This document shows positions 1,493 to 32,731 of a stretch of DNA of 33,921 nucleotides, one piece after another. Positions within the stretch are counted from its first letter, which is position 1. Every line of letters starts with the position of its first letter. A model generated the notes under the pieces. The model did not search any database. It saw only the letters and a list, made by a program, of their open reading frames with translations, and was not told where the DNA came from. The translations under genes were made by a program, and so were the position numbers. The stretch is from Neolecta irregularis DAH-3 (lineage: Eukaryota). The stretch spans positions 1 through 33,921 of the forward strand of contig LXFE01000507.1 of assembly GCA_001929475.1 (NCBI GenBank), read 5' to 3'.

Positions 1493-3651
1493 CTAAATAG
1501 ATTTATCTACACGTTGACCCTTTGTGCGCGCCGGGAAATACTCCACCCAACCCGCTCTATTACTCCCAAAAGACAAACTAGACGGATTAATTGTATGGCA
1601 TCCTCCATAGGTAATTTCAAACGATGGACAGTCTGCATCAGCGACAATAAGCTACATGTGAGATTCTTCCACACTGCAAGACATACAGCTGTTGGCAACG
1701 GGAACAATCGAAGCGTATAATCAAAATCCCATAGCACAGGCTTAATGCTCACGTGAAATGGCGAAAGATGCCCTTGATCAAGAATCGTTCGTACAAGCTG
1801 ACATTAGCCAAACGATTATACTGAATGAAACCACATTTCTGGCAGCTTTGACATCATCAGGTATATCATCTTGATCTGGCGGTGGACGATACGAATCATC
1901 GCCTTGTTCCTGTTCTTTTACAGCAGGTTTGAAAACCATACTATTTCTTCTCAAACGAGATAGCACATCGTCCCTGAATATCACAATATCTTGTGTAAAA
2001 TATGATATTCTGTAATGTCAAAGAATTATTCCAGGGAAACGCCTACCGACAAGGATTACTAGCGAAAACACAGTCCTTGCAGACTCTCCTTACGCGGTTT
2101 ATAAATACGCTAGGAATTTCCTTTCGAGGTAGGTATAAAGATGACGTCCAAGGATCGTTTGGCCCGGGTATGAATACCCATTTACAACCCCGAGCTAGAT
2201 GAGGAAAAGAATCAATCAGTGTAGCGAGAGCATTCCAGCGCTCTTATATCAGCCCGTATATGGAATAAGAGTACCTTTATACTGTGCAGAAAACCCGTTT
2301 GTGTGAAAGAGATTCGACATAAAGTTCCCGCAAAGGATAAACGCCAGTGGACATTCAATTGTCGTCCCGTTGTAATGCTCAAACATGTTCTTCAAAGCAT
2401 TCATAGTCTTTGATCAGCAGAAATTTTGAATCTGTATATACTTTTGCATCGTCCAATTTGACATCACTAGCCACGACAATCTTTGCATTCTCAAAATGGT
2501 GTTCCGCGCGACGGAGATATTTCTCTGTTTCCCGTTCGCCGTGCTGTAAACCGAGAAAATCTATATGGCCATAAATTTCTTTTGAAAGTTGTCTTCTTTC
2601 AACAGGTGGATGTCCCAATGTGAGGACTCGAAACCGACCATCAGAAGCAAAAGTACCGTCTACAAGAACAAAACATCCTGGTGCGAACCATCCATCGCCT
2701 GAAACCTTAAAGTCAGCGGGACCGATACGTGTACAACGCGTGCCGCTTCCGACATGTCTAGTTTTACAGTATCATCTACATCCTCAAGGTATAAATGTCC
2801 CTGTGGAGCAATCGCCAGCATCCCAAATAACATAAATGACTGCCCTGCCCGACCAAGAAGATTCTTGATCGATGTAATCTCGTACCAGTCAGTCTATTTA
2901 GAACAAAAATCTGCTGTACCTTGTGATAATCTTTTCCCTGCGATATTTGACTCCCGGAAAACGAAGGCGCCTGAAATGCTTCATTCCTTAAAAGTCTCTG
3001 CTTGAGCACAAAATACCGCTCTCGAAAGAACCCAGGTTTATGTGACGCGGCGGCGGCAACTATACACGGAGGTTCAAGTGATCTTGTATAAGGATGAAAT
3101 ACAAGAATGAAATAAACGTACTTTTCAAATGTTTTTCGATGGGGATTGAATACCCATTTGGGCTGGTTGAATGCATCTATTACGACAAGATATTTCGCGG
3201 GATCGATGTCGACTGCCTTTGACTGTGGGATATCAAGTGACTCTACATCATCTTTTTTGTTTTTAGTAGATACGGATTTGATGGTATGAGGAACATCTAT
3301 ATCTCTCAAAATGGGCACGAGTTTGTCTTCCGAGACTAGTGGATTCGATTCTTGCGTGAGTCTAGGTCATTGAAAGATACAAATACCTTCTCGTTTTCCC
3401 CATATTCGAGCAATTTCATCCAACCTTGGTTCTGCAGTTGTCCTCCATTCGACACCACATCTCTGTCCGACCCATTCGGCCAGTAGTTTTAAGGCGTCGC
3501 TTTTTAATGTGAGATTATGCTTCTTTGTGAAGATTCTGAATGCGATGGGGCGAAGTTGTGCGGGTAAAAGTTGGACTGGAAGAACTTTTGGAATCACATT
3601 TGAACCGTTTCTCTTGCGTTTTGTGCCAAATATTGGTGCAATTGCAGTCAT
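1493..3651 (-). CDS. DPB2: DNA polymerase epsilon subunit B, 9 introns
   Basis: Motifs include [95 protein letters not shown] and [33 protein letters not shown] is at 3651; the stop at 1495-1493 is reached after a final 35-nt intron. Confidence 0.95.
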
Positions 3652-3662
3652 CGGCGTTTGGA

Positions 3663-3719
3663 GTGAGATCGCCTAAAATTGAACGTCTATTAATTGTGAG
3701 ATCACGCCAAATTGGACGT
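3663..3719. promoter_or_regulatory. Duplicated 24-bp element in the 81-bp divergent dpb2/NASP promoter
   Basis: GTGAGATCgcctaAAATTGaACGT (3663-3686) and GTGAGATCacgccAAATTGgACGT (3696-3719) are 19/24 identical. A regulatory role is inferred from position. Confidence 0.55.
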
Positions 3720-3732
3720 TGCTTCCTCGACA

Positions 3733-4979
3733 ATGGCCGAGCAACTCGTCGCCCAAGGATGCAAAGCATTTGCACTCAAGAAATACGACGACGCTGCAGA
3801 TATACTTGCGCAGGCTGTAGAAGCTGTGTATGTACATTATACTGTAGAGCATGTGCTTATTTTATTCAAGAATAAAGACAAACGGCGAAGACAGCGCAGA
3901 TAATGCGGATACTTTGTTACTCTACGGCAAAGCGCTCTTTGAAGTCGCCCGGCAAAAGAGCCAAGTTCTCGGAGGCGGTTCACCTAGCGATCATGAAGAC
4001 GGTGCGTTTTTATTAAGAATCTCAGACTTAAAAATAGAAGCGGCCCAAGATTCCCTATCCAAGGTTGCGCTTCCTGATTCTACCCAAGATCCTAGGTTCC
4101 ATTTCGAAGGGGACGTTGAGAGCAACGAGGATGAGAATGATGAAGACCCGGAACAAGAAGACAACGGCGAAGAAGACTTCACGCTCTGCTGGGAGACTCT
4201 CGATTATGCACGCGTCCTCTACGAAAAGAAAACGGACCACCAACAACTCAAGGGAGATAATGAAGGATTGAAGGCTACAAAATGGAAATTGGCAGATGTA
4301 TTTGATCTCCTCGGCGAAGTATCATTGGAAAGCGGTATCCACTCGTTTACCACCCCTACTCATCCCTAGAAAACTTTGAGCAGGCAATCACCGATCTTCA
4401 AAAATCCCTGGAATTCAAAAAAGAATTACATTCTGGACATAGCAATATTCTCTCAGAGGCATATTTCAAATTGGCTCTGGCGTACGAACACTCGCCGAAC
4501 GAGGCTGATCGCCCGGAAGCCATTGCCAACATTGAACATGCCATAAACACCGTAAAGACATTTATAAAACTCGAGGAGGAAAAGCATGGTCTTGACGCCA
4601 AAGGAAAGGATAAAGAGGTCCAAGCAATTACTGAAGGGAAAGAAATGGTCACGATGATGGAGCAAAAGGTGCCGTATATCACTGCGATGTATACTAATTG
4701 CAGCTCGCCGAGTTACAGCAACCTCCAGATTCCAAGGTAACTCAGACCCTCAGGGATCTTCTCGCCCAAAGCGGAGGCGCTTCTCTTAGAGAAGGCGTCG
4801 AAGCGCTAATTGGAAGCGCCAACGATCTATCTGGCCTTGTCCGGAAGAAGACGGAAACTGCAAAGGAAGTCGTGGAAAATGCAACACTAAGCAAGCGAAA
4901 AGAAATCGAGGAGCAAGAAATTCCTGCATCTCCGACCAAACGGGTTCGATTGGAGACTGTCCCGGAGAAAGATGGTTAA
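3733..4979 (+). CDS. sim3: NASP/Sim3/Hif1-family (SHNi-TPR) histone chaperone, 4 introns
   Basis: TPR helices (LLLYGKALFEVA; DFTLCWETLDYARVLY; LADVFDLLGEVSLES|ENFEQAITDL) with an acidic insertion, then a C-terminal ANDLSGLVRKK and basic NLS-like tail. ATG at 3733. Confidence 0.88.
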
Positions 4980-5138
4980 ACAGCGATATGTATTGACAGA
5001 GGAGTTTCCCTTTGTATCTATATTGAGAGCAGCCAGGCGTAAAATACCAAAATTCAGGCTTATTCTAGTTTTATTTATATGTTTTATATGTTTTCTAGCA
5101 AAAGCGACAACCAGGAAAAAAGACCCAAGATATTACTG

Positions 5139-5213
5139 ATCCCAGAGATTTAACTAAGAATGTATTTGCAGATGTTCCCACACGGGTGTTAATTTAGTTA
5201 GCATCTCAGGGAT
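5139..5213. repeat. Imperfect inverted repeat (about 75-nt hairpin) between NASP and mpe1
   Basis: ATCCCaGAGATtTAACTAA (5139-5157) matches the reverse complement of 5194-5213, ATCCCtGAGATgcTAACTAA. Confidence 0.6.
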
Positions 5214-5524
5214 GGTCCAGCTCCTTCCGTACGCAAAAGTAATACGACTCGACTTGTATCTATAATAGTGTTGTCTCATCAAAAGCACTTGCAAATACTA
5301 AACTGTGGATTACCGTAAACAGGAAAGAGTGGCGATTATGGAGCGACTCGGGTTTTTGGCAACTGCACCTCTTCATTCCAGCCACCTTCCTCCTCCCTGT
5401 CTTTGAGATCAGCAAGTTTGCTCTGCTGTTTTGTGTCTGTTTGTGAACAGTCTGTGTCCCTTGGTCAGAATAAACCAGAGAATTTGTATTCCTGCTTCTT
5501 TCTACATTCTGTTTTACTGCTGCG

Positions 5525-7023
5525 ATGTCCTCTCAAGTCTACTACAAATTCAAGTCGTCCAAAGAGCCTTCGCGCGTCGTCTTTGACGGCTCCAGCATCT
5601 CTGTTTTTGACTTGAAACGTGAAATTATAATTGCAAATAAGCTTGGAACTGGCACAGAATTCGACCTGGCAATATATGACGATTCGACAAATCAGGGTAA
5701 CCTTTTGATGATATCAGTGCCCTATGCTAACCGTGAGAATTTGCGGATGACACCGCGTTCATATCCCGATCCACTTCTGTGACAGTTAGGAGACTTCCTG
5801 CTTTACGCCCTGGAAAAGGCACTGCTGCGAGGTATGTTAGTGGCATCGCCTCGACCCATAGCAACCGTCGCTTAGAATTTGCAAAGAAGGATGTCAAAAA
5901 GGAAATTCCTGTACGTATACTTTATGATCGAGTTTTGATAGATTGCCAGATTCCTAATACTGACCCCATCGGAGAAGACAACCTGTCGGCGTTTTTTAGC
6001 GCATCTTCTAACCAGTGGGAACAAACCCAGGAAAATCTTGCTTCACAGAAAAAGATCTTTTATTCAAAAAAGGCAAATCAGAATGCAAACGTCCCTGATA
6101 AACCTACTCCATCTGGTTATATTTGTTACCGATGCGGCGAGAAGGGTCATTGGATCCAGGCTTGCCCCACAAATGAAGACCCAAACTTCGACAAACGCCA
6201 GATTAAACGTACAACTGGAATCCCCAAGGCTTTTCTCAAGACAATCGAGAAGCCAGCTGAAGGGGGGAATGTGATGGTTAACGCAGATGGAGAATATGTT
6301 GTTGCTCGACCTGACGAGTATGTTTTATCATCATAATATGCTAATAATAGGTCTTCGTGGGAAACATATAGAGCAAAGACAACGGCGGCTTCGGCCTTTC
6401 AGAAACCAACAGATCCAGCGCTTGTATGCGGAATCTGTTCAAAACTCGTAGTTCAAGCTGTTCGAACGCCTTGTTGTGATAGTGTATATTGTGAAGAATG
6501 TATTCATTCCTCTTTATTCGAGAACGATTTCACTTGCCCTGGTTGTTTAGCCAGGGATATTCTTCTCGACGTGTTAAAAGTTGACGATGATATTCGAAAG
6601 CGTGCGGAAGAATATGCTCAAGCGCATTCTGTAGAGGTAGAGTTTTCCTGCGCACGCATTGTAAGCTTATCAAAGGTTCCTCAAGATTCGAAATCTCCCG
6701 AACCCGTTAGTAAAAAGCGCCCTGCTCCCGTCGATGAATCTTATCCAGACCCAAATATTCAAGCTTTTCCACCTTTTGGAGTTCCATTGATGATGCCCAT
6801 GATGCCAGGTATAGGAATGCCTCCTCCAATGATGCCAGGCATGACATTCTCGCCTCAATTCATGATGATGCCGGGCTACGGTAATTTCAATAATCCCTTT
6901 ATGCAATTTCCCAATCAGCAACCATATACCTCGGAAGATGATAGCCCGTATATGCGAAAACCAGTGAATGACCGACAACGCGCGAAGAGAGCGCGGCCAA
7001 GTGATTATCGTCAGGTTATGTGA
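5525..7023 (+). CDS. MPE1: Mpe1/RBBP6 cleavage-polyadenylation factor (DWNN ubiquitin-like domain, zinc knuckle, RING), 4 introns
   Basis: MSSQVYYKFKSSKE..ISVFDLKREII (DWNN); YICYRCGEKGHWIQACPTN..IKRTTGIPK (knuckle); CGIC..RTPCC..YCEECI..CPGC (RING); C-terminal RPSDYR. Confidence 0.93.
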
Positions 7024-7292
7024 GCTGAAAAACTGGTCAGATAGGTAGGATAATTTAGTCATAGTCCCTTTCTGTACAGTTATGCATTCAGGTTAGGTAA
7101 TATACCGCATTTCCACTACAATTCTATCCGCGTGTGTGTCGAGCAATAGTTGAACAATGAGCAGGAAAAGACATGGGATCTCAAGGAGGAAACTATTTTG
7201 ATGAATTTAGTAGAATGAAGCCTTATTGGACTAGTAGGTTCTCGGATAGAAATCCTATAGGGATCACTCTGCGGACTATATTTTGATTTACA

Positions 7293-7652
7293 TTAATCCT
7301 GAATTTCTCCACTCTTCAAAGCCCGAGCTCCTTCAATCAACTCTGGCTTTTGTAATATCTTCCCTTCCATCATTTTGATATCAGCTTTGATCCGAGTTTT
7401 CAAATTTCGCACATATTTATGTCCAGTTGCCTCTTCGGTATTTGGGCTGATGCTGACATGCGATTCGATAGTTGCGTCAGCCTTTGCGTCTTTAGTTGGC
7501 AATGTGGTATTACGTTCGGATGAGAATGGTTCTTTAAACCCAGTATCATGCTCAGTCCTGGATCGTGCGTCATGTGCGGAGGAACTGTCACTTGCGATTA
7601 TCATATCTGTTTGCTTATTTGAGTCAAGCGTGGTTTCTGGACCAGGTGTCAT
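7293..7652 (-). CDS. Small hydrophilic hypothetical protein (119 aa), probably with a 5'UTR intron at 7703-7658
   Basis: ATG-initiated ORF with an S/T/D/E-rich N-terminus and an amphipathic basic C-terminal helix (LKTRIKADIKMMEGKILQKPELIEGARALKSGE). AAG|GTAACC..TAAC..CCAG ends 5 nt before the ATG. Confidence 0.55.
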   Translation of the reverse strand: MTPGPETTLDSNKQTDMIIASDSSSAHDARSRTEHDTGFKEPFSSERNTTLPTKDAKADATIESHVSISPNTEEATGHKYVRNLKTRIKADIKMMEGKILQKPELIEGARALKSGEIQD

Positions 7653-7826
7653 TTAGCCTGGAGTAGGGCAAAGAGTTACTAGTAACCAACAATACAAGGT
7701 TACCTTGCGGTCTTCCTCAAGATGAAGCCAAATGTATGAATAAAGTTATTGATTGCAATTTGAATGAGCAATAGAAGAAAAAAATACATTATCGCTATCC
7801 CCATAGCATACATGAATGCAGCCACA

Positions 7827-8467
7827 TCAGAGCTCTATGCCAAGGAATACGAAGTTCTCTGACTCCTGGGCTGGTTTTTTTATCAACTCGAATCCAATCC
7901 AGCGGAGATCCTTTATCAAGCATCCTAGACATATTAGCTAGCTCTTGAGGGCCGAGACATACGAAGATCATCACGTTGGCGGTCCACACAAAGGATGAGA
8001 TGCTCGCAAGCAAAATAGTCAGCCGCCAACTCTGAAACGGCGATCAAGCCTTCTCTGAGATGTATGTCTGCAACTACTGAATCGACGCAAAGATGGAAAA
8101 AAGAATGCACGACGAAGGCATTCCACGTCACGCCATAGGCGTCTTGGATGACCAGTTTTTTGAGTTTTGAATGATGACAGGGGAATATTAAACGGCCGGA
8201 AAAAAGAGAAGAGGTCGCGCCTTCAAGTCCTAGAGATCTGTCACCTCTCCAGGATGAAGGATACGACGCCTCGCCGGTAGACGACGAGGACTTTTGGCCG
8301 GTGGCCTGCGGGATCAGCGATGCGATGGGATTTGCGGTACCGCCTCAGGGCCACCACTTGAGCGCGCAGTTGCCGGTACTGGAAGACAGAGAAGACTGCG
8401 CGGTACAAGACGAAGCGGTACTGAACAAGCTGCTGCTAAGACTGGCGGGAGAGAAGTTATTCGCCAT
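7827..8467 (-). CDS. OAZ1: Ornithine decarboxylase antizyme; needs a +1 programmed frameshift at CCC-TGA (8350-8345); introns 8340-8306 and 7962-7925
   Basis: ORF1 is 40 aa and ends ..CALKWWP-TGA. The spliced +1 frame gives ..TWNAFV..LREGLIAVSELAADYFACEHLILCVDRQRDDLRCLIKDLRWIGFEL..ENFVFLGIEL*, the fungal antizyme signature (S. pombe spa1 orthologue). Confidence 0.92.
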
Positions 8468-8616
8468 GCGGTGGATCAGCGAAAGGATGAAAGCGGGTGG
8501 CGAGTAATTATGTCGCAAATCGTGGTGGTAACGCCACGACCCCCACGGGCGGAACAATCTGCTCATGTGACCACTTGGCCCAGGTGCCACTCCACCAATT
8601 TTTGTTGTTTCTCGCG

Positions 8617-9591
8617 ATGCACAAGCACCATCACCATGCAGGCGAGCACCCATACTGCGAACTTCTCGGAAATTTTTCTCTTTTTATCCAGGTATGTTGT
8701 TTAATTGCCACTCTATTGACTGGGCTGAGGCATCGCTGGGCCTCCTCGCATGTGCGGCTTTGTTGATCAAGCGAAAGCTCGAACAGCCTCCTCGGCCCTG
8801 GAAAACATGGTATCCACTTCCCGTGCATCCAACATCCTCATAGACCTTCAGGGTGTTTGATGTCTCGAAGCAGATATTTGGCTCCATCGTCGTGCATTTC
8901 GTCAATATTGGAATCTCGACATTTGCAGGAGTCGCAAACTACTCCAACCCCTGTGTTTGGTACGTCCTACATTTGTCGCAATGCGTCGCTTATTTCCAAA
9001 GGTACTTTCTAAATGTACTCGTAGATACCACTATTGGCGTCGTCATTCTGTGGTTCTGGTTAATAGTTCTTTCCAAAGTGAGTAGATTCTTCCAATGGAA
9101 AGGCACTCGGTCCGGCGATTATGGGGATATCAAGGGACATCCAAAGGCATTCATGATAACTCCCCCACGTTTTACTCATAGAATAGATATCTTTCTGGTT
9201 TCGTCAGACAGCATTATACACCCTGACCTTGCTCCTTATGAAGCTTGTAATTTCGTTGGCATTTTACTTGATGCCATATCTTGACCGCATGGGTACCTGG
9301 ATGATAAGTTGGACACAAGGCCACCGCAAGCTGCAAATCTTCTTTGTCGTGTTTGCATTCCCTTTGGTGGTATATTGCCTATCTTTTCCCATGGCTCACA
9401 AGTTTAAGATGAATGTCATTCAGTTATGGTGTATCGACAATATCATCATGTTCAAACATCATGATGTAGGCATATTCAATGAGACAGAGTGTCTTGTTGA
9501 CGGAACTCGCATCGAAAGACATCCTGATCTCGTCCATTCTAGATCTGCATCCCCCGTTCCCGAGCTTGATCTTCTTCATCCACCGGAATAG
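8617..9591 (+). CDS. YPL162C/STIMATE(TMEM110)-family multi-pass (vacuolar) membrane protein, 5 introns
   Basis: Spliced: CELLGNFSLFIQ|ASLGLLACAALLIKRKLEQPPRPWKTW|VFDVSKQIFGSIVVHFVN..NPCVW|YFLNVLVDTTIGV..SGDYG..PK|ISFWFRQ..KLQIFFVVFAFPLV|MNVIQLWCIDNII. Confidence 0.85.
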
Positions 9592-9849
9592 TTTATTCAT
9601 TATTGTCAGATATATTAGTTCAAAATTCGGTACTTGTTTGGTTAGAGTTGTGGCGTCGTGGTTCTATAATTGTTTTTGGGAAAATCAACCTCGCATAGTC
9701 ATCAGAGCAAATTATTATCTTGGATCAAGCCATCTCATAACCGTGATTACAATGATCCAACTAGAAGCACACAAAATAAACTCGTCAGATAGAAAGAAAC
9801 CAAAAAGAAATCTCGGATCAGATTTATTTCTTCAAATTATTTTGCCGTA

Positions 9850-11547: not shown

Positions 11548-11961
11548 AGGACTGGATAAAGAAGTCAGATCTAGAAATAAAGAGCGAAATACACGATTAC
11601 TAGCCTAAATATGATATAACTCAAGAACCTGTTGAAACAATTCCTTGATATACCTTGATAAGCATATGTCTTTTTAGAGATAGTACTGTATGTGTGTCTC
11701 GCGATCCGAGATAGAACTTGAAAACACGGTGTGGTGGAGTTGATGGTGGTTGGTAGCGGGGAGGAATCTCAGATGAGTGAAACGCCTCCAGGCATGAGTC
11801 GATGGCGTAACTTATATGCTTATTATATTACTGGCAATGTGTAGAGCGTAGTCCAAATGGATTGCGTAAGAGACTGGTGGAAATGAAAAATGTTGCTTTC
11901 TCACAAATCTTGTTATAAGACTACCATGGATATGTAGAATATCAGTGCGTTATAGACGACC

Positions 11962-11997
11962 AAACATGTTTTCAGAGAAGTCAAGGAAAACATGTTT
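11962..11997. repeat. Perfect 12-bp inverted repeat; each arm holds the palindrome AAACATGTTT
   Basis: AAACATGTTTTC (11962-11973), a 12-nt spacer, then GAAAACATGTTT (11986-11997). Confidence 0.75.
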
Positions 11998-12289
11998 AAT
12001 AGTTCTATACAGGCTAACGGGTTGTAACGTTCTTGTTTTAGTATTATAGAACTTGAATTGGCCAAAGTCTCTATTTATCAGCCATGTCTTTGTAATTTAT
12101 AGAGAATTCGGCAATAAACCAGAGCACTACAATATATATGGAGGAGCGATAAAATTTAAACCTGACAAATGAGTTCTCGCAAATTTCGTCATCGCTGTTA
12201 ACTTGTTTCCCTCACGCAGTAACAATTGTCATTCCATTGCCCAACCACCTACGCGCATCCCTTTCCATCCTGCTAAAATACTATCAAAC

Positions 12290-14222
12290 ATGTCTGAAGC
12301 TATGTATATCTTTCCTTTTCACATCTATGAAAGTTAAACTGACACCAAGATTGCGCTTGGCCGGTATTTCCGGCCATGTGCGATCGCTCGATAACAGTGC
12401 TGGTTCGTTCATCTCACATACTTGAGACATATATAGCTAATACTCTTACGCAAAGATCTCGGCCTAATCGGTCTCGCTGGTACGTTATTATATTCCTTTA
12501 ATGGCATTGCTGATCGTGTTAGTTATGGGGCAGGTATGTAATCGCCTTGTCCTGGTTTAATCATGTACTATAGAACCTGGTCCTCAACGCCAATGACAAA
12601 GGATTTATTGTTGGTATACATTCAATTCAAAAGTTACACGGTCTAATCTGTGGCTAGCTGTTTTCAATCGTACTGTCTCCAAGGTTGACCACTTTTTGGA
12701 GAACGAAGCCAAAGGTAAAATATTATCATATTTTGGAAGCTCAAATCGAACAGGGACAAATATTGTCGGTTCTCATTCGATAGAAGAGTTATGCTCTCTG
12801 TTGAAGCGACCCCGTAGGGTTATGCTTCTTGTCAAAGCCGGTTCGGCCGTTGATGACTTCATTGCCAAACTCTTACCACATCTTGAGGAAGGAGATATCA
12901 TTGTTGACGGTGGTAACTCTCACTTCACTGATACCAACAGAAGATGCGATGAGCTCTCAAAGCGCGGAATCCTTTTCGTCGGCTGCGGAGTTAGTGGTGG
13001 AGAAGAAGGTGCTCGAAATGGTCCAAGTTTGATGCCTGGAGGCAACGAAGCTGCATGGCCTCATATCCGAGAAATTTTCCAAAAGATTTCCGCTCATACT
13101 GATGGAAAACCATGCTGTGAGTGGGTTGGCTCTGTAAGCTCCAAGATGTTCTTACAGAAACGTACTCAACCCCAAGGGTGGTGCCGGTCATTACGTGAAA
13201 ATGGTTCATAATGGTATCGAATATGGTGACATGCAAGTCATTTGCGAAGCTTATGACTTGTTGAAACGTGGTCTTGGAATGCATGAGAATGAAATTGCGG
13301 ATGCATTCACCGAATGGAATAAAGGTGTCCTCGACTCTTTTTTGATTGAGATTACCAGCGACATTCTTAAGTACAACGACAAAGACGGGGCACCTCTCGT
13401 CTGCAAGATTCTCGATACTGCTGGCCAGAAAGGGACCGGGAAATGGACCGCTATATCTGCTCTCGATCTCGGTATGCCAGTTACCCTCATAGGAGAAGCT
13501 GTCTTCAGTCGATGCCTATCATCTATCAAGTCAGAACGGCATGTAATTAGTGAAAGATTGTTCCTGACTTTAGTGTTCGAGCAAGCCGAATTCTCTCCGG
13601 CCCACGTCCAGAATACCACGGAGACAAAAGTAATTTCATCGCTCAACTCGAACAAGCCCTCTATGCCTCAAAAATCATATCATACACTCAGGGATTCATG
13701 CTGTTTCGAGAAGCAAGTAAGACTTACAAATGGAACCTTAACTACGAGTCTATTCCTCAGATGTGGACTGATGGATGTATTATTCGTAGTGTTTTCCTCC
13801 AAGATATCACCGCTGCTTTCACCAAGAATCCAGAATTGGAAAACTTGCTCTTTGATCCGTTCTTTAAGAAGGCTATCGAAACGGCTCAAAATAGTTGGAG
13901 GCAGGTGGTCGCTCAAGCTACCTTATGGGGAATTCCTTGCCCTGCTTTTAGCACTGCCCTGAGTTTCTTTGATGGATATCGAAGCGAACGAGTATATATT
14001 TTCAAAGCTTCTATTGACAAATTTAGCTCCCAGCTAACTTGCTGCAAGCTCAACGAGACTACTTTGGAGCTCACACTATCCGAATACTCCCGGAATGTGT
14101 TTCAGAATCACTTCCAGCTGATGAAGGTGCTTTGCATCGATTGTTAGGTCTAATGTACAGATATCCATATCAACTGGACAGGACATGGCGGAAACGTCAG
14201 CGCGTCCACGTATCTCGCCTAA
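12290..14222 (+). CDS. gnd1: 6-phosphogluconate dehydrogenase (decarboxylating), 10 introns, with 5' micro-exons and two possible acceptors in intron 1
   Basis: [113 protein letters not shown]. Confidence 0.97.
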
Positions 14223-15572: not shown

Positions 15573-16327
15573 TCAGCCACCCTTTTTCTCGTTTGCTTTT
15601 CGGGATTCTTCCATGCGTCTGCGTTCACCTTCTAACTGCACATTTCAGAGATGGGTAAACGACGGATGTACTCACGACTGTTCTCACTCTTCCCAGTCCA
15701 TTGACATCATTCCGGAGACTTTTGGTTGCATTTGCAGTGTAAGGGGGATCTACGATGATGTCGTCTAACACGGCAATACTCTTGCCATTCCATTTACAAG
15801 GCAGACTATAAACAATAAGAGCAAGTGGATGTAGGCTTGTACGTCTTTGACAAGGCCATGAATATTGCACGGCCGTCGTTGGAGACTCCGTTTGGAATTT
15901 GGGAGATGGATGCCCGTGCATTTTTAGCCTTTGGATTGCCTTTGACCTCTAGGGATGGGAGCGAGATAGGGCCAATTGCAGGAACTGCAGTCGTGAAGGG
16001 CGCCGCTGTTTCCTCTGCGGATTTCTGGACGGGTTTTTCGAGAACCTGGACGCTTTCGAGATGAGAGATCTTCCACGTATGGACTGTGCAAGCGTGCAAC
16101 ATGGTATTTACCGCAGGACTGGATCCCGTATTTAGTTCTACAGCAGAAAAGAGCGTGATGGTGTTTGAGGCGGCATCGAAGGCGTATACTCTGCCGCAGA
16201 TCTCGTCGCGAAAAGCGGTGATGATCTTTATTCTGCACCGTCAGCCATGAACGGAAGTAATGGCGGCGTGCTTCAGACCAATAACCCAATCCACGGTAAA
16301 CAAATGGGACGACTGCGGCGGAGGCAT
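15573..16327 (-). CDS. LSM12: Lsm12-like protein (Lsm fold plus anticodon-binding-like domain), 3 introns
   Basis: MPPPQSSHLFTVDWVIGLK|IKIITAFRDEICGRVYAFD..GVSNDGRAIFMALSKT|LPCKWNGKSIAVLDDIIVDPPYT..RVRTV|LEGERRR..KKGG*. Confidence 0.85.
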
Positions 16328-20548: not shown

Positions 20549-20750
20549 TATTCAACCGACTAGTATTGTCTGCGACACTGCTTCCGCAAGAATGTTCTGG
20601 CCCATGTCTTATACACATCGTGGCAATAATGATATATATAATCATAACTCACGTAGTTATTCTGTATCTATATTGTTATCATCAAGAATGCTATCTTCAC
20701 GTCCAAGACAGTTCCCCGCACTGTGCACCTCGCTCACTGTCACGACTCCC

Positions 20751-23197
20751 ATGAAGTTTGCCAATCACCTACGAACAAGTCTTATCCAAGAGTTCCGCTA
20801 CCAATATGTCGACTATCAGGGGGCTAAACGCGATCTCAAAGACAGATTGAGAGATCATCCTTGGCGTGACGAAGATGAAAAGGCTTTCATCGAGAGGTTG
20901 GACCAGGAACTCGACAAAGTATGGACTTTCCAGAAAGTCAAATCTGGGGAAATCGCAAAACGAGTGAAGGCAACTGATAAAGATGTGTCTGAAGTTGTTG
21001 AAAACATCGAGTTGGATGAGCCTGAGCGAGTCAAGGAAGCTTTCTTGTATTTGGAAGAAGTTTTATTCGATATCATTGCAGATGTGCATGATTTAGCAAA
21101 ATTCACGCGGCTGAACTATACTGCCTTTGAAAAGATCCTGGTATGTCAAGCTTCAAGTACCCCAGCTAACCGTGCAGAAAAAACATGATGTACGGCTTAT
21201 CTCTCTCATTTGCTTACCATAGAAACAAACGGGAAGACGTCTAAAACACACTTGGTCGATAAAACTACAAGAAAAACCATTCTACAAGGAAAATTACGAC
21301 TCTTTAATCCTAAAATTATCAAAACTATACGACCTTGTGCGCAATAAAGGACATCCCATACAAGGAGATAGCTCTGCTGGAGGAAAACAACAAAACTTTG
21401 TCCGCCAAACTACCAAATATTGGGGCAACTAATATTTTACACATTGAGTACTGACTGATAGTTCATCCTGACAACATTACAGAATTGAAACTTATTATTC
21501 TTCAACATCTTCCTGTTCTCACCTTCAATCCAAACAAGGAGTTCGATCTCGCTGACTCGGCGATTTCGTCAATATATTTTGACAATGATGATCTGCAACT
21601 TTATCTTGGACGACTTGAAAAAATCGAGGGGGCTGAAGCTATCCGATTGAGATGGTATGGAGGAATGGATGTGAATACCATCTTTGTCGAACGGAAAACG
21701 CATCGTGAAGATTGGACGGGTGAGAAAAGTGTAAAGGCACGATTCAGTTTAATGGAAAAGCGTGTGAATGAATATTTGAAGGGTTCTAAAACCGTTGAAC
21801 AATTATTCGAGAAAACTCGAAGAGATGGGAAGAAATCTTTAAAAGAAATTCAGCAACTCGAGACGCTCGCAAGAGAGGTTCAATATACTTGCATTAAAGA
21901 TAAACTTCAGCCAGGTATTGCCACTCGACGATCACCAAGTTGATAGCTAGTGGTTCGAACATTCTATAATCGTACCGCGTTTCAACTGCCAGGCGATGCT
22001 CGAGTTCGGATTAGTCTCGACACTGAATTGACAATGATTCGGGAAGACAATTTCGACGGCAAGGAGAGGGCCAGAGATAATTGGCGACGAAGAGATGTAG
22101 GAATTAACTGGCCTTTTGTACACTTGCCCGAGGAAGAGGTTGAACGGTTCCCTTACGCTGTCCTTGAAGTCAAACTTCAAACCCACGTTGGCCAAGAGCC
22201 TCCTGCTTGGATTCGTGAGTTAGTTCAAAGTCATTTGGTCTCCTTGGTCTGTTGTATCCGATACTAATGGTGCAGGTTGAAGCCGTTCCAAAATTTTCAA
22301 AATTCATCCATGGAACAAGTGCTCTTCTTCCAGAGAAAGTTAAGCTTCTTCCGTTCTGGTATCCTCAGATGGACGTTGATATTAGAAAGCCAGAGATCCC
22401 TCATTTCGGAATTGAAAGACAACCAGCAAGTGCTTCTGCATCTGCTTCAGAAAACGATGACCAGTATCTTGATAGGATTCGTGCACTGAACGAAGATGAA
22501 TGTCCTGGTAGCCTTGGATCTCAGCATGATGATCGAGATGATGATGTCGAAGATCGCTACGATGATGCTGCAATTGAATTTGAAGATGATGAAGAATCAT
22601 CTCTGGGTTGTATACAGGATGAGGATTCAACATTTCTACAAAAGGTTTCCAGTGCTCTTGCAATAATTGGCCAAAAGTTGAGATCCAAACGACCCTTATC
22701 AGCTTCTCAGTCCGAGGAAGACGAGGGACCTGAATTAGGGACCATCTACACTCAACGCTTTCGAGCACCTCCCGGAAAAAGCATGTCTAGTTACATCTAA
22801 GTCAATGCTTACTCTTTCAGAAATTTCTGTTCCCGTTCGAATCGAACCCAAGGTCTATCTTGCAAACGAGCGAACCGTGTTGGAATACATGCAAACAGCC
22901 ATTTACATCGGTGCAGTGGGAACCAGTTTGATGAACTTTGGGGACAAGACGTCGTTACTGGCTAGCGCCGCATTCACTCTAACTGCTGTACGCTACTTTC
23001 TCAATTCATTGCTAAAACCCCAGATCGTAGTATCAATCTACTCAACGGCGCGTTTCCTAGTCCGAGCTATATACATAAGAAGGCGGAGAGACACTGGCTA
23101 TATCGATCGATTTGGGCCAACGATGCTCTGCCTTTTGATACTCATAAGTCTTACCTTGAATTTCTGGTTACGACTTCGAAGTGAGAGAGACTTTTAA
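20751..23197 (+). CDS. VTC4: Vacuolar polyphosphate polymerase catalytic subunit (SPX, VTC/TTM, 3 TM), 7 introns
   Basis: MKFANHL (SPX start), [123 protein letters not shown]. Confidence 0.95.
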
Positions 23198-23309
23198 TTA
23201 TTTTCTTTGAGGGTTTTGGGGTTTATAATGCATGTGATGTTATAACGCTTTTCGATAGTTAATAGAATTGGAATCGAGTTTCAAACAGAATTGATCAGAG
23301 AGAGTAGTT

Positions 23310-25104
23310 TCACATTTGCCATTTTCCTTGTTCAAAAGCCTCCGCCTTTTTCAAGACTTCATCTTCTTTTTCAAGAGCGAACTCACACAATCTTCTTCGT
23401 ATTGACTTTTCTGTGATTCCTAGCATTCTGATCGCCAAAAGAGCAGCATTCGTGCTATTGTTAATGGCAACAGTCGCAACCGGCACCCCTCTCTGCCAAA
23501 GTGAGCATATTTAATGAAAGAAAAGAACGTACAGGCATTTGCACAATGGAATGGAGTGAATCTACTCCACCAAGAGTCTTTAATTCTACAGGAACCCCTA
23601 TAACTGGCAATGTAGTCAACGCAGCAACCATTCCTGGCAAATGAGCAGCACCACCAGCTCCTGCGATGATCACTTTAATTCCACGTCCAGCCGCTTCTCG
23701 GGCATATCGGAACATTCGATCAGGTGTCCGATGTGCAGACACAATCGTGATCTCAAATGGTATGCCAAATTCTGATAATATATTTGCGGCATTTCGCATT
23801 CGTGGTAAATCAGAATCTGACCCCATAATGATTGAAACAACTGGCAATGACAAGGTCAAAGAAGAAGGATTGGTCATTGAGTCGGCATTCGAAGTAAGAA
23901 TATTGGCGAGTCGATAATCACACTCTGACATACTAGATCCAACAATCGTAACATGTCCCATCTTGCGCGATTTTCTCGACTCTAATTTTCCGTAGAGATG
24001 TACTGTAGCACCTGGCGTCTCTAGAGCTTTCCTACAGATTTGATGATGCTCATCAGGTGTTTCTCCGCCCAAAATATTCAACATGATTGAAGTAGTCTTC
24101 ATGGCAGTACAAAGTTTGGGAAGCGGAAGACCGGTTATAGCTCGAATATGAGCCTCGTACTGTGAAGTATTGCAGGCTTCAATCGTGTAATGACCTGAAT
24201 TGTGCGGCCGAGGGGCAATTTCGTTGATCAGAATGTCTCCTAGAAGAAGTAAGCTATCCATTGCAAGTACAGGAGAGGTTACCCGACTTCATCAGAAACA
24301 TTTCGACTCCAAATACTCCGGCTCCATTAAATGTAGAGATAGCTTTCTCTGCGATGATTCTAGCTTTCGCTTGGACTGATTCCATCACGCGAGCAGGCGC
24401 GTAGACCAGGTGGCAAATGTTGCTTTGGTGGATTGTCTCGACGGTAGGATAAGAGATTATGTTTCCTTGCGTTGTACGAATGACTACGACGGCAAGTTCC
24501 TTCTCAAACTCTGCCCATTTTTCAACATAAAGAGGTTGATCTGGGAGCGTCTTTATAATCTCGGTGACCGATTCCGCCGACGATACGACAAAGTTTCCAC
24601 GACCATCATATGACAAAGTTCGCGACTTCAGCATACAGGGATATCCCAATTGTTCACCAGCGGTCAGTATTTCATGTCGACTCCTTTGCACTGGTATTGA
24701 TTGGGTTGTCGGCAACCCTTTTGAGGTGAGATGTTCTTTTTGAGTGAATTTGTCTTGAATGATTTTAATCGTTTCGCTCGAAGGATGAACCTCGACTTTT
24801 CCTTCCTTTTCTATCTCTCCAAGTATTTGGGTATCAACATGTTCAATTTCAGTAGTAAGGATGTGACATTTCGAGGAAAGCGTTTTAATTGCTGACGGAT
24901 CTGAGAATGACCCGTCAATATGTTGAAGCGAATTGATTTGCTTCGCCGGCGAGAAAGGAGCATCAAGGATGATAGTTTTGATATTCAGTCGATTAGCAGC
25001 TTCGACAAGCATTCGCCCAAGTTGGCCGCCGCCTTTACATTATTAAGTATAGCTGGTGATTAAAATGTGGATGCACCTAGTATACCAATTGTTCGACTGT
25101 CCAT
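23310..25104 (-). CDS. ADE2: Phosphoribosylaminoimidazole carboxylase (PurK-PurE fusion; S. pombe ade6), 3 introns
   Basis: [110 protein letters not shown]. Confidence 0.97.
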
Positions 25105-25930
25105 TGTGTTTATCGATCAAAATAGATAAAAATTGGCGAGACAGTTCGAGGTCTGAGAAAAAAAATCAATAATAAGACGACTGAAGTTCTCGACAACCAA
25201 CGTTCTCGAGTTATGTCAAGAGATTACTGAATGATTGAAGCCTCAAAAAGAAATATTTGGATACATATAGTTTTGAAGGGTAGTATATTCTGACAAATCC
25301 GGTACCTTTGGTGTACTAAGAATAATGATTAGGACAAAGATCAATCGGCTTTCAAGTTGCATTTTTAGAATAGATGGTTCTCGTATATATCTAATGTAAT
25401 ATTTGACGCTTGAGCTTTATCTGGCTAGATGCCTTGACAGGTATTGAAGTCAGATTCAAGTTTTCATTCTTTCAACACGTTTGACGAGACTTTGCAAGCG
25501 AGATCTACAGAAGATACTTCATCAATCAATAGAACAGGTCGATGGGGAAAAGAGATTAACTACAGCTGAATTCTCGAAACAGCATGAATTTCTGAGCATA
25601 TGAGTTAATTTTTATGGCATAAAGAGCTTGTTCGAGCTGAGCGATAAATTTACTTTTGTCCCTATGGTATTCTAGGACGTATCTGATTCATACAATAGAC
25701 TCCAATTAAACACTGAAATCATCCTAGAAATTTCAAAGGAAAGAAGGGGCACTATATAAAGGACTCCTGGGGATATGTTCCCGTTAGTAGGTAATATGAT
25801 AAATAAACGTGACAGAAACTTAGGTTAACACAGACTCATTCCTCGACTCGGCTACTGTTAACACTCAGTCAGACACCGTATAAAAATAAGCATTCTTGGA
25901 ATCATTTAGAGCTATCATTATTGGCAGCTG

Positions 25931-26434
25931 ATGTCTGAAGTATCGAGAAGTGCTTTCGAATCTCCATTCGACCCGATATCCTATATCTCCTTAGCACTTC
26001 CATCACAGTTAACAACGCCACACTCAGCTCAATCTCTGCTCAGTGAATTGACATTGCTTGAGGGAAAGACGCAGGACGACCTTGCTGTACTTCTCGATTC
26101 TTCAGTACCATTAATTCCTCGTCTGCCGGCGGATCTCGAAACCTTGGTATCTACAGCATCTTCGCTTTCCACATCGTTGGAGACGCTTCAACAACCACAA
26201 TGTGAAAGTCTAGAGCGACTAAAGATTCTGGCTCAGATCCGAGAAAATATTGTGAAGACAGTGGGAGTTTTCGAGACTGGCTTGCGAATTGACCAAGAGT
26301 TGGAGCGAATAGAATTTCTGAAACAAAGCCGGGAGTTTGAAAAGGCGCAGGAAGCTAAAACCAAGCTGCGCCGAGTAGTAGATATCTGGAAGGGAACCCG
26401 AGAGGAAAAGGAGCGGCGCGCAAAGGTGGAATAG
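25931..26434 (+). CDS. Short helical protein resembling the N-terminal part of COG complex subunit 7
   Basis: FDPISYISLALP..QSLLSELTLL..IPRLPADLETL..LERLKILAQIRENI..WKGTREEKER. The pattern resembles the COG7 N-terminus as recalled from memory; not verified. Confidence 0.55.
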   Translation: MSEVSRSAFESPFDPISYISLALPSQLTTPHSAQSLLSELTLLEGKTQDDLAVLLDSSVPLIPRLPADLETLVSTASSLSTSLETLQQPQCESLERLKILAQIRENIVKTVGVFETGLRIDQELERIEFLKQSREFEKAQEAKTKLRRVVDIWKGTREEKERRAKVE

Positions 26435-26604
26435 CAGTGCCAGCTTTGTATTGCAACTTCAAATCCTCAATCTCTTTTTTTGCATATAAGAATTGGGTAT
26501 AAACTGTGATATATTTAATCAAACCACTGAATGAGTGTGCACTCTGCGTGTTTCGTGTTGCTTGTTTACGACATTCCAGTTCCGTCTCCACCAAATCCTC
26601 ATCC

Positions 26605-29600
26605 ATGAATCAAGGTACTCCGCCAGGAACTCCAAATCTTATCTCGTTTGACACGTTTGAGAATCAGAAAGAAAACATACAACCAAGGCCGGAGGGACGT
26701 TCTGCTAAAGCACTCGCCCAAGTATTTTCGGCTTCTCCACGAACACAAAGAACTTCTCTCGCTAGTACAAAACAAGCGTATGAACGAGAAATAGCAAATT
26801 GTGATGAATCCGACGATCCTCTCGATATATGGATCCAGTACATTAAATGGGTTACTGACAATTATCCACAAGGCCAGAGCGTGGATAGTGGGCTAGACGA
26901 CCTCTTCGAACGCTGCACCTCGAAATTCAAGGATTCAAAACATTACTATAATGATGCGAGATATCTTCGTCTTTGGATGCAATACGCGCGAAGATCGGAT
27001 TCACCAAAGGATATTTTCGTTTTTCTTTACAGAAACCAAATTGGCGCGGAATTAGCTATGTATTACGAGGAATACGCGGCTTTTCACGAGTCTATGGGAA
27101 GGTTTCGTGCATTTCTATTGATGGTATTCTAATTGAGTCTAGGAAGAATCAAGCCGATGATATTTACAAACTCGGAATTTCTAGAGGTGCGAGGCCGTTA
27201 GAACGACTACAGCGACGTTATAATGAGTTCAAACATCGCTTCAACGCAGATCCCTCCTCCTTGGAGAATGATCCTGCTCTTCCAGACCCACTTCGTCCAG
27301 TTCTTGGTAGTCAGTCGTCATTCCTCCCCATGGGTAGCACTCAACAATCCTCAAGTCAACAGTCCCGGCAGACTAATCGAATTGAGGTATTTTCAGACGC
27401 GAAAGGATCCGAGGATGCCGTTAGTACTGGTGGCTGGCAAAGTATAGGAACTTTGCAAGGTAAGAAAAAAGAAAATGTTCAAGACCCAAAGCCCTGGGCC
27501 GGAGAGAAATTAAAGATGAAAACAAAATCCGAATCTCAAGAATCAGATCGATTTATGGTCTTCAAGGATGAAAATGTACAAGCACTTATCGAAAATCATA
27601 GCTAATATCTGTAAGGCACTATCATCTTCAGCTATATCAAATCGAACTCCTCCTCTTCTCAAGGCGGCGCAAAATAATTCTTTGCGGCCACCTCCTCAGC
27701 CTGGAAAGCGACCAGAATTTGTGGTTGTTAATCTCGAGGCTATGTATCCGTCTCCTGGTGTTGAATACTCCTATGAAGAACTCCGCGCTAAATTACATGG
27801 CTTGTATCAAGTCAAATGGCCAGAGAACCCAAAGAAATCTTCACCGATTTCAACTTTTCAACTTTCTCAACCTTCCCAGTCTCAGGATTACATGATGGAA
27901 CTCAAAGAAGCGCAAACTCCAGTCAAAAGTAAGTAACCTTGTGATAGATTGAACTGATGCCCAAGGCTCTCCAAATTCGAATAGTGACTTCATCAAGCGC
28001 AAAGCTGCTTCTCCAACTATTAACACAAAGGAAGCTATGGCCGATATTATTGATATATTTAGTCAACCTCTGAAATGTGATCGCAGCGATTACGACAGTT
28101 CGGTTGAAGACGAAGAAGACTTGACTCGCTATGGAGCAGATAACATGTCCCAGTTACGAGAGGGTTTGCCTATCAAACAGCAATTCCCGCCTCCAGCTCC
28201 TCAAGCTTCCGAATCTAGTGGCTTTCTTCCAATTCGAGAGACACAACACAACCCAGGAGCCCAAATGAATCATCTTTTAGAACCCAAAACTCCTCATTTA
28301 CCTCAATACCACGATCGACGCCCCACCTCATTTGATCTAATGACTCCAATCACAGAAAATACCGAAAATCTCCCCAGCACAATTATGTCAAAGTTAGCTA
28401 TCAGTACAAATGATATCCACGGTCGAGATGGTCCGCTTAGTTCGCCATTTCATGACGACATAACTCTGGATACTCCGAATCTGAATTCGACGTTGGTAAA
28501 GTCAAAGGTTGTTGGGCCTCTACCACAAAGAAAAGGACCCATCATCACAGAGGCTGTATGTAATCCGCTTGATCCTGGTATCAAATCCACTATTTTCGCT
28601 TCGTTGTGGCCTTCAATCGATTCATACCAAGGTTATAACGCTTATGATCACTCACTCCATAAATCGGAGGTTCTCGAGAAATATTTCAAGACAAATGCTA
28701 AAGGCAATGCTTCCGAAATCACTCTCGAGTTGGGATCTTGTCAGTTTTCACTACAAACGAAACTCGGCGAAGGAGCCTATGGAGCAGTTTATCTTGCAAG
28801 GAACATTTCTGAATCGAAATTGTATGCCGTGAAGGTGGAAAAAACTTCAACTGCATGGGAATTTTATATCATCAATCAGATTAAGCGAAGACTAGGCGTG
28901 TCAAGAGCTGCACTGTCGATCATTGAGGTTTACGATATGCACTTATTTCGTGATGAAGGATATCTTTTTCTCGAATATTGCGACCAAGGCACGGTTTTGG
29001 ATATTGTAAATCTTGCCAAGGCTGATGGTGGGGGAGTTCTGGATGAATTATTAGTTATATTCTTCTCGTTGGAATTGATTCGAACAGTTGAATCGTTTCA
29101 TTTGAAAGGAATTTTGCACGGAGATTTGAAACCTGATAATTGTCTTCTTCGTCTGAAGGATTTTTCAGAAGAATGGTCCTCCCAGTTCCGAAGAGATGGC
29201 AGTGGTGGATGGTCGTCCAAAGGTCTGACTTTGATTGACTTTGGACGAGGAATTGATATGAAACTCTTCGTTCCGAACGTTCAGTTTATCGTGGATTGGG
29301 AAACGGATGAACAAGATTGTGCTGAGATGAGAGAGATGCGACCCTGGACCTATCAAGTCGACTATCACGGCCTTGCAGCTATTATTCATACCATGTTGTT
29401 TGGCAAGTACATTGAGACAGTCAAAGAATCCAAAGGACCTGGAATCGGTAACAAGAAGTACTCTGTCAAGGCAAGCATTAAGAGATACTGGCAAGTTGAT
29501 ATGTGGAGAGATCTTTTTGACCTACTTCTTAATCCTTTGGCAAATGCTGGATCAGATGGCCTTCCGGTCACTAAGCAATTGAGTAAATTTCGCGAAGATA

Positions 29601-29692
29601 TGGAGACATATCTGGAAGAAAACAGCTCCAAGGGTCTTGGATTAAAAGTTCTTTTGAAACAGTCCCAAGCACAATTAGCACACGGGCGGTGA
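26605..29692 (+). CDS. BUB1: Spindle checkpoint kinase of the Bub1/Mad3 type (MadBub), 3 introns
   Basis: QKENIQP..GRSA; TPR (DDPLDIWIQYI..YNDARYLRLW); second KEN (KKKENV); GLEBS (EYSYEELRA); SPTINTKEA; kinase motifs LGEGAYGAVY, AVK, HGDLKPDN, LIDFGRGIDM, PWTYQVDYHG. Confidence 0.95.
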
Positions 29693-30232
29693 GAGAATTG
29701 TTTTTTGATCTTGCATTGGGTTTCTTGGTGTACTTGTTGTACATATAGACAGGAATAAGCAGCACGCAAAGCACTTTTGCTGATATATCTTGAACACATT
29801 TCACTAAACCTGGATTTACAAGTTACCATTTAAAATCTCAACTACATGAAGTAAAATCGCTTTATCTTTTTATTGTCATGTTGGGTGGTTTTCTGAGGTG
29901 GATTTACGTTTTAACCACGATGCGAAGTAAAGAATTGTACAAGAGCAGTTGTCTAAAGAAAATTCTAAAAGCAAACTCTCTATTGCAGTCTAAATACACT
30001 AGGGTCATTGCGCACCCCTGAAAGCTCCGATTGAGGCTATTGCTAATTGCAATAATACCAAAACATTGGTGAGACATGGCGGTCAATGCAAGACTTGTGC
30101 TGGTCGCTTCGAGACAATATTCATATGAAGCATTGATATCGAAAAGGCGAGAAACTTGAAACCTGGCGACCCTGCACCCAGGGTGTTTATCTCAGTAACC
30201 AGATATCGCCGATAAGTGTTATATTACTCTAT

Positions 30233-31224
30233 TCAATTCTGATATATTCCACTTTCTCTTTTCCCTTTACTCGTGCGACCAGGCAGAACAATTGACGATA
30301 CGTACTTATCGCCGGCACGAATTGCATCTTGCGCCTGTCCCACCCAAAACTTGGCTCTCGCTCGATTTCCTCCAAGGCTGGATATAGAATCAATCGACAG
30401 AAATGAGACGATAGTCGATCTTACAAGGCAGTCGGATATACGATTAAAAACAAGGTTTGAGCAAGTCCAGACTCTGAGACTATACGAAGAGAGATTCTTC
30501 AAGGGTATCAAAGTTTTCTTCACTAACGCCGCTGATAGTTTTTCAATCATCCTTTCGAAGACAATGTGCGCAGGACCGAGATAGCCGATATGTCTAGCAA
30601 CAGCTTCGAATCCGTGAAACCGATCCATTTGTCCACGAATCCGGATTCCATCTCGTCCTAGAAGTATTGTCGATTCCAAAGAAAAAACCATATCCAGCTT
30701 CTTAGCCTTGAAAACCTCGACTAGAAATTCCTGAAATCGACGGGTATACTTTTGCATAGGAGGACTTTGAAGTATCTTTACTAACTTGATGGTTTCTGAA
30801 AGACAGTAATCTGCACCACGGCGATCGTACAAGTATTCCACAGTCGCCGGTGACTGGAAGACATGTTCCAGTGAAATTGTCCGGATCGAAGAAAACTCTG
30901 ATTGTGAAAGAAAATCCAATGACCCATGATCTTGAATTGCTAGTGGTGTGTCGTTTTCGATATGGGAAAGGGCGTTGGTCATCGAACGCGAGGTAATGTA
31001 GTGTAACTGGTGAAACAATAGCGAGCACCAGTTATGAGGGGAAAAAAACTATTTCGTGAAAAGAAATCTTCAGTAAATGGTGATACATACGATAAACTAA
31101 AGTGGTCTAGGCTTGATTCGACTGTTTGGAAGGGAAACACAATCATACGACTTGTTCTTGCTATATCCAAGAACTCGCCCATCAAACGCCCGACTTGGAA
31201 ATTTTTGATGTCATTCTGCGACAT
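30233..31224 (-). CDS. Hypothetical protein, paralogue of 33179-33832; 5' structure uncertain (possible intron 31086-31049)
   Basis: 261-codon open frame sharing ARxxGYLGP and WxxQAxDAxxxGD with the 33179 ORF. A 38-nt GTATCA..TAG intron would join it to the upstream frame (ATG 31224). Confidence 0.55.
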
Positions 31225-31431
31225 ATAATCTGAAAAATATTCTTCTGCCAAGAGTTTATTTGAGAGAATACTCGGCGACCTGTTTGGTCATTTGATTATT
31301 ATAAAACCAAACGGTGATCTTCAGAATTATCTCATTTGAATACCAAAATATGAGAGATCCCAATAGTCGACTCTCATCAGTCTGCGTTGTCATCAACAGA
31401 ACCTTTGTCGGAAATCCTTTTGCATGCAAGC

Positions 31432-31474
31432 AAATTTGAAGTCTGTTTTAAGCCATAGGACAGACTTCAAATTT
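31432..31474. repeat. Perfect 15-bp inverted repeat with 13-nt spacer
   Basis: AAATTTGAAGTCTGT (31432-31446) and ACAGACTTCAAATTT (31460-31474). Confidence 0.85.
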
Positions 31475-31771
31475 CGCTATACCTCTTTTATACCGCCACT
31501 TTCTGAAAGAATTTCATTGCCGAAACTACCACTGCGAAAGAAGGGCCTTCGCTTTTCTTTGAAACTGTAGAATCTCCCTATTTTCTTGTCTATAGGTACC
31601 ACAAGCTTTTTGGGCCATTTGGGGAATATCCGAATATAGTATCAAGATATATGACGATTCGACGACCATGTGGCAAATATCTCAAGTCCAAAAACATACT
31701 GGGCCATTAAAGCAAACGCCAAAGATAGATCTTATGTACAAAAAACATATTACGTCATAAATGTATTATTT

Positions 31772-32731
31772 TCATGAAAGGCCTTTTCTTTTGACCGGTA
31801 GAGTCTTTTCGATGGCTAGCTCCGATTCAAGATCCCGGCTTTGTATCTTGTCAAATGATTTTATATTGTCAAAAGCGCTGTCATCAAGGGATGTGATATT
31901 GTTTTCTTTCAGTCTTCTTATCTCCCGGGTCAAGTTGAACACTTTGGCATAACATTGCAAAGCTTTTGCGCCGCAAAGTATCGCCAGACATTCAGTGGCA
32001 AAAAGCCCGAATTCGGCATAGAAAAGCGAGTAAATACCAGCGCATATCGCACAGGTGTTTGCTTCAATGAGTCCTTTTAATACACGTTTAGTCAGGTGGA
32101 AGGCTGCAAAATCGTCTGGTATAGTACGAAGCACTTGAAACATGAGACTTTCCGAGTAAATAGAAGCATACTTTTCTGGGAAGCGTAAAGTGTATTGATT
32201 TCGCAAGCGAGGAAGAGTACAGCGCCGACTAGATCAACTATCTTTACAATGAGATGAAGAGTGCTGACACCGCTGAGAGCAGCGGCGAACTGCATCGGTA
32301 TACTGAGAGCTATGGATATTTCAGTAGCTTTGAATAGATTTGTCGTAAAGCGTAGGTATTTCGTCGATAAGAGCTGCTTTGGTAATCTCAGATAACTGAT
32401 GGCGACTTCACATATCCCGTAACAATTGTACGTTAGACGGATGAAATGTCTATCGATCGGGAAAAAAGAATCGAGAAAGTATGTCAAGAGCACGCCGCCA
32501 GCGGAAACTGCTAACAAAACGAACATTGACTGGTATTTTATCAGTCTTTTGAAATCCTTTTTGCTCTTCAAATCTTTGAGCATAGGATTGGTCATTCCTG
32601 CGAGTTAGATTTGAATGAGAATTAAACGTGCCTTGACTACACCAGAGACCATATACTAGAAAAAAAGACTTGAAGACCCAAAGATTTGCGGTATGAAGAT
32701 CGGTAATCGTAGTCTGCTGTGTTGCAACCAT
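31772..32731 (-). CDS. Orphan multi-pass (about 7 TM) membrane protein, 295 aa; introns 32631-32598 (GC-AG) and 32171-32134
   Basis: Three overlapping ORFs join in frame through two short introns (..WCSQG|MTNPML.. and ..ASQK|MLRTIPDD..). Seven hydrophobic segments are followed by a charged tail. Confidence 0.7.

Follow-up and report, generated by a model that had tools for sequence, protein, structure and literature searches.

An excess of GC-AG introns among the tiny introns of Neolecta irregularis

Why should a single contig of an early-branching ascomycete contain seven introns that appear to begin with GC instead of GT? The question is raised by a gene-dense stretch of 33,921 nt from Neolecta irregularis DAH-3 (contig LXFE01000507.1, positions 1 to 33,921 of the forward strand; hereafter the window), in which a first-pass annotation had counted about 7 GC-AG introns among about 67 and had proposed relaxed recognition of the 5' splice site, through variant U1/U6 RNAs or length-based intron definition. 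All evidence presented here consists of DNA sequence and homology. We find a roughly six-fold genome-wide excess of an ordinary intron class. The explanation we favour, and consider rather better than an even bet, is that true U2-type introns are here being removed by a spliceosome whose small nuclear RNAs (snRNAs) are canonical, in which donor strength would act as an additive threshold and pairing across very short introns would fix the donor.

All seven introns were present at the positions reported, each with a GCA start, an AG end and a length of 34–40 nt, and ab initio prediction, to which the coordinates were not supplied, placed every one of the seven exactly (posterior 0.92–1.0) among 62 window introns. 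Two lie in vtc4. The first (21425..21461, + strand, 37 nt, donor GCAACT, without +5G) is obligate: there is no frame-keeping GT alternative, and the W[VI]H motif restored at the junction is uninterrupted in 116/120 Vtc4 homologs, 81 of which read RQTTKYWVHPDNIT. For the second (22781..22820, + strand, 40 nt, donor GCATGT) the GC junction gives the spacing of the homologs and the alternative GT+9 adds three residues; its position is shared with other fungi (see below). The public Vtc4 (P0001) lacks both GC introns and consequently loses the reading frame at the first and meets a stop within the second. In gnd1 (13539..13573, + strand, 35 nt, donor GCATGT; posterior 0.99) the flanking exons correspond to residues 184–302 and 304–443 of yeast Gnd1, with only an exactly split Arg codon between them. 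In lsm12 (16233..16271, − strand, 39 nt, donor GCACGC) GC splicing takes out an in-frame stop, the resulting model is identical to the public protein P0122, and the homolog P0124 is collinear as judged by eye. Judged by homology, these four junctions are exact, as the first-pass annotation had predicted.

The remaining three are less firmly placed. In dpb2 (Pol epsilon B; 2706..2743, − strand, 38 nt, donor GCACGC; posterior 0.92) the GC donor is probable, its model being collinear with human POLE2, unlike the public model P0121, whose GT+6 donor opens a gap of two residues; in the comparison with yeast either donor is one residue out, a neutral result. The intron of the STIMATE-family (YPL162C-like) gene (9147..9186, + strand, 40 nt, donor GCATTC; posterior 0.94) is likely: no GT shares its acceptor, and the sole GT alternative requires an acceptor 25 nt further downstream. 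PF12400 matched both exons, but with a register offset of −3. Homolog searches with the dpb2 and YPL162C exons returned their own protein only or nothing. At both sites the predicted GC donors are favoured over the alternatives. The seventh intron (32598..32631, − strand, 34 nt, donor GCACGT) is a candidate with a posterior of 0.99, but two in-phase GTs, at −6 and −18, might serve as the donor instead, and no homolog of the gene was found. In-phase GT alternatives had been noted for this intron and for those starting at 22781 and 2743, and all are present. The gene that contains it (window 31772–32731, − strand), the putative 7-TM gene of the first-pass annotation, encodes a hydrophobic protein of 296 aa, for which neither Pfam nor, at 0.9, Atlas gave a match. 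The model also made a false GC call at 22992; the true donor is the GT at 22988 of the last vtc4 intron (22988..23023, + strand, GT-AG), the frame of which agrees with the Vtc4 C-terminal consensus.

A self-training two-strand gene model was run on 629,621 nt, comprising the window and 16 contig stretches chosen for length and seen via kinase matches (one via a U1 match). Outside the window, GC donors were found in 71/1,193 introns at p>0.8, i.e. 6.0% (confidence interval 4.7–7.4%), and in 81/1,346 best-path introns, with GC introns on 15 of the 16 contigs. The rate is hence not the ~1% that would have spoken against the first-pass annotation. Its impression of a high share was correct in kind, although the wider value is ~6% and not the window's ~10%: the window, with 7 of 62–67, lies on the high side of the genome rate (7/62 versus 6%, p=0.08). 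Compared with the fungal mean of 1.009% stated in PMC7072748, even 6/67 is significant (p=6e-5). A safe range for the genome GC share is 4–7%.

Could such a rate arise from T-to-C assembly errors or from noise in the gene models? Starting from the same prior of 1% for GC and for each of five decoy dinucleotides, the model converged on 1,322 GT, 98 GC (6.9%), 3.7 GA and 2.6 TT introns, the others being ~0. When the prior was fixed at 1% for each of the 15 dinucleotides other than GT, the expected number of introns was 62 for GC, with 23 at p>0.9, and 2.6–5.8 for each decoy, with 0–1 at p>0.9; decoy donors thus remain below 0.3%. When 84 GT donors were changed to a decoy, 70 expected introns were recovered; a class that does occur is therefore not overcounted. 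In a Pfam register test of both flanking exons (62 non-GT introns, 60 of them GC; exons of at least 22 aa, one locus), 18 GC pairs had one Pfam family on both sides, with an offset of 0 in 14, of one residue in 3 and of −6 in 1. An artefact can draw on the false call in the window and on an evidence base of assembled sequence. Errors, however, are not expected only at +2C or with stronger flanks, and spiked donors keep the GT profile; decoys are near zero; two diverged paralogs (77% nt identity) carry a GC donor at one common position; and the lsm12 junction is already used in the public protein. We regard an artefact as very improbable.

Two loci from the same survey may be mentioned. One 485-codon gene (L035:5340-5905; G000:C3066:25340-25905, + strand) is predicted to contain three GC-AG introns. 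A probable GA-AG intron of 37 nt with donor GAAAGT lies in an actin-family gene (L078:5740-5776; G000:C2531:15740-15776, + strand; posterior 0.98, Pfam offset 0), where a single-base error is possible.

Apart from the donor, GC and GT introns have the same anatomy. The median length is 37 nt in both classes (5–95%: 33–44; range 32–46 nt; p=0.69), both share a U2-type branch site (YTRAY) in which the branch A lies 29 nt after the donor and 8 nt before the intron end, and first introns make up 19% of the GC and 21% of the GT class. No single dominant U12-like motif was apparent in the list of GC donors, no U11/U12 search having been made. The donors are weak in general: the information in GT donors amounts to 6.2 bits with the GT counted and only ~2.2 bits beyond it, +5G is found in 40% of GT donors and is missing in 34/78 GC donors, and position +4 is T in 52% and A in only 18%. 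The proposal of relaxed 5' splice-site recognition is borne out by these values.

The GC donors are nonetheless compensated, contrary to what the lack of +5G in two of them had suggested. Scored for U1 matches at 7 flank positions (U1-complementary consensus), they are stronger than GT donors (4.01 versus 3.03 matches, p=1e-11), with a mean gain of one U1 match, and their branch sites are better as well. Against spike-in controls the values are 4.05 versus 2.86–3.28 matches and, for the branch score, 2.48 versus 1.77–1.85; the compensation is hence larger than the detection bias seen with spike-ins. Furthermore, +3A is kept in 74/78 GC donors, and none of 150 +3T donors has GC.

The GC share rises step by step with U1 pairing: for 0 to 7 matches it is 0/4, 1/64, 6/316, 20/445, 26/294, 17/107, 5/16 and 3/3. 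From ~2% at weak donors it approaches at the strongest the neutral C/(C+T) of 39%, although the slope may be overstated since detection favours strong donors somewhat. The odds ratio of T over C at +2 is 9.5, close to that of +3A (8.7), and a GC rate of 1% would require 62. We conclude that +2C costs about one base pair of U1 pairing.

The history of two of the introns was followed by comparing vtc4 intron positions across 80 metagenome Vtc4 loci. The position of the 22781 intron (phase 1) holds a GT intron in five fungal loci (L142, L153, L156, L162 and L167); 54 loci are intron-free there, 20 lack the motif and 1 is spurious. Of these five loci, two group with Pezizomycotina and three in a clade adjoining Saitoella (support 85 in a quick tree). 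The simplest origin of the GC donor would therefore be a substitution in an intron that was already old. At the 21425 position 71/80 loci have no intron, and some introns may accordingly be lineage-specific. The three loci of the Saitoella-adjoining clade (L142, L162, L167), possibly Archaeorhizomycetes, also have tiny introns (median 36 nt, mostly 32–42) and equally weak donors (2.98 matches). Families of similar intron sequences were not found: among 1,249 introns only 3 similar pairs appeared, none with a GC intron. An introner origin was ruled out on this ground and because the vtc4 22781 position is common to other fungi.

The snRNAs give no hint of a variant recognition sequence. The single U1 copy found, with a score below Rfam gathering, carries the 5' recognition sequence ACUUACCUGG, the ACAGAGA box of U6 is canonical, U2 (two copies) has the canonical GUAGUA, and loop 1 of U5 is canonical. 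No GC-reading U1 was found by pattern search, which returned the same U1 and 3 matches without an Rfam U1 hit; as the assembly is fragmented, a U1 copy may have been overlooked. The suggestion of a variant U1/U6 is thus not upheld. The U6 gene (L002:269-417, − strand) is itself interrupted directly after the ACAGAGA box by a spliceosomal intron of 50 nt, the donor of which, GTAAGT, is strong.

How, then, might canonical snRNAs come to accept so many GC donors? In the explanation we favour, tiny introns with a fixed branch distance would allow pairing across the intron to confine the donor to a narrow zone, so that little donor sequence would be needed. Donor strength would act as an additive threshold, with +2C removing roughly one U1 pair, and +2C would be tolerated in donors that retain +3A and can make up the loss by roughly one further flanking match or by a better branch site. 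GT donors with pairing to spare could then drift to GC. We infer splicing of these introns at the RNA level, and short length may be the cause of the tolerance. Length-based intron definition, one of the two original proposals, fits lengths of 32–46 nt, but may by itself be too little, given the clade of tiny-introned relatives.

Several observations weigh against this explanation. GC was found in none of 44 confident introns of L142, L162 and L167, all of which have GT (p=0.05 at a rate of 6.5%, in loci with orthologous genes whose introns are not independent); short length alone may hence not suffice. There is thus a weak indication that tiny introns permit GC donors without being enough to bring them about. 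Out-of-frame GTs near GC donors are not depleted (36/760 versus 409/11,020, a comparison confounded by the GT of the +5/+6 consensus), and the idea that GC is used for want of a nearby GT found no support in the same count. One of eight GC calls in the window was false, and 6 GC donors were called among 70 introns of other metagenome loci, where the model, run with a 7% prior, fits poorly.

The absence of GC donors in the related clade would be expected if, in the Neolecta lineage alone, some protein of the spliceosome (Prp8, Prp28, the U1 snRNP or factors of the tri-snRNP) had changed so as to weaken the proofreading of +2U, the tiny introns being incidental. Proofreading of +2U would then be largely lost, giving a GY donor rule with +2 near-neutral at strong donors, rare GA-AG introns would be spliced, and tiny-introned relatives would be unchanged. 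The confinement of the relaxation to +2C, with other donors below 0.3% and other acceptors below 1%, is in keeping with such a change, as may be a few differences in the Prp8 linker from both human and worm, the two species compared (human 1431-1432, 1561 and 1563). Both compared stretches of Prp8 are, however, highly conserved. The U6 m6A methylase, U1C and Luc7 had been recommended for inspection, and the genes for METTL16, U1C and Luc7 were all found, which together with SNRNP27K rules out their loss. The U1C N-terminus, Luc7, METTL16 (NPPF) and SNRNP27K (RQYMNR) are ordinary-looking, and the +2 penalty equals that of +3A, as a general relaxation predicts. We consider a protein change unlikely, if well worth keeping in mind.

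The NPPF motif of METTL16 and the RQYMNR motif of SNRNP27K are important for these proteins, both of which are linked to +4A at donors; METTL16 (L094:472-1812, − strand) and SNRNP27K are kept in Neolecta although its donors prefer T at +4. The intact prp8 is spread across several short contigs. Fragments of prp8 that are decayed and in part scrambled occur on six contigs (L182, L183, L184, L185, L189 and L190), with 83–100% nt identity to the intact pieces; most have stops or frameshifts and some keep introns, pointing to a probable origin by DNA-level copying. A second functional Prp8 was ruled out, since the extra matches are these fragments.

Alternatively, GC donors might splice somewhat worse and have become fixed by drift under weak selection, in a machinery no more tolerant than elsewhere. 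Among 28 rows of the quick tree the end branch of the window Vtc4 is the longest (1.01), only strong donors have a GC share that is not far under the neutral 39%, and many decayed prp8 fragments have been kept in the assembly, as drift might lead one to expect. Yet GC is missing from relatives whose donors are just as weak, so that donor weakness is not special to the Neolecta lineage, and GC donors, some of them obligate, stand in essential genes. Drift of this kind seems to us improbable.

In comparison with ordinary U2-type GC-AG introns, those of Neolecta share the GC...AG ends, the U2-type branch site and flanks stronger than in their own GT donors, a compensation also described for human in PMC3167603; they differ in frequency (~6% instead of ~1%) and in a weak absolute consensus. 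File S9 of PMC7072748 gives annotated GC-AG plus AT-AC introns of 0.14% for S. pombe (7/5,041), 2.2% for Cryptococcus neoformans, 5.0% for Pochonia chlamydosporia, 5.6% for Metschnikowia bicuspidata and 6.2% for Sugiyamaella (13/209). The high values are several-fold above 1%, as in Neolecta, though they are unchecked annotation counts and two rest on small numbers; if they hold, the Neolecta rate is not unique among fungi. Higher shares are given for algae, namely 39.6% in Aureococcus, 22.2% in Micromonas pusilla and 7.7% in Chlorella (PMC3033335), ~14% in Pelagomonas and 4% in Cyanidioschyzon (10.1101/2024.10.30.620910), and in these sources the excess is ascribed to high genomic G+C (65.9–69.5% in the two highest). 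By contrast, G+C in Neolecta is moderate (43.6% in the window, 38% in introns), so that the usual explanation by G+C does not apply, and the excess exists without any intron repeat family. No report of a GC-AG excess in Neolecta was found among the top-ranked results, including term look-ups in PMC5309816, PMC8476143, PMC7072748 and PMC10581693.

Tiny introns with GC donors thus offer a natural test case for the recognition of intron starts, the stepwise climb of the GC share with U1 pairing a natural series for the worth of +2U, and the related tiny-intron clade may serve as a comparison. Gene prediction that forbids GC donors harms models and hence comparative work on this early-branching ascomycete: of the three public proteins checked, Vtc4 is frameshifted and truncated, Dpb2 probably has two extra residues, and Lsm12 is right.

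At the other end of the intron, non-AG acceptors make up less than 1% (~10 of 1,426 expected introns), by which a general 3' relaxation was ruled out. Candidate non-AG introns at p>0.5 are C2625:10014-10051 (GG), C3919:29952-29989 (AT) and C3174:25925-25959 (AT), all in G000, together with G000:C2625:27362-27395 (CG) and G000:C1299:7077-7114 (GG). AAG and GAG acceptors are common, accounting for 222 and 30 of 1,249 introns, respectively.

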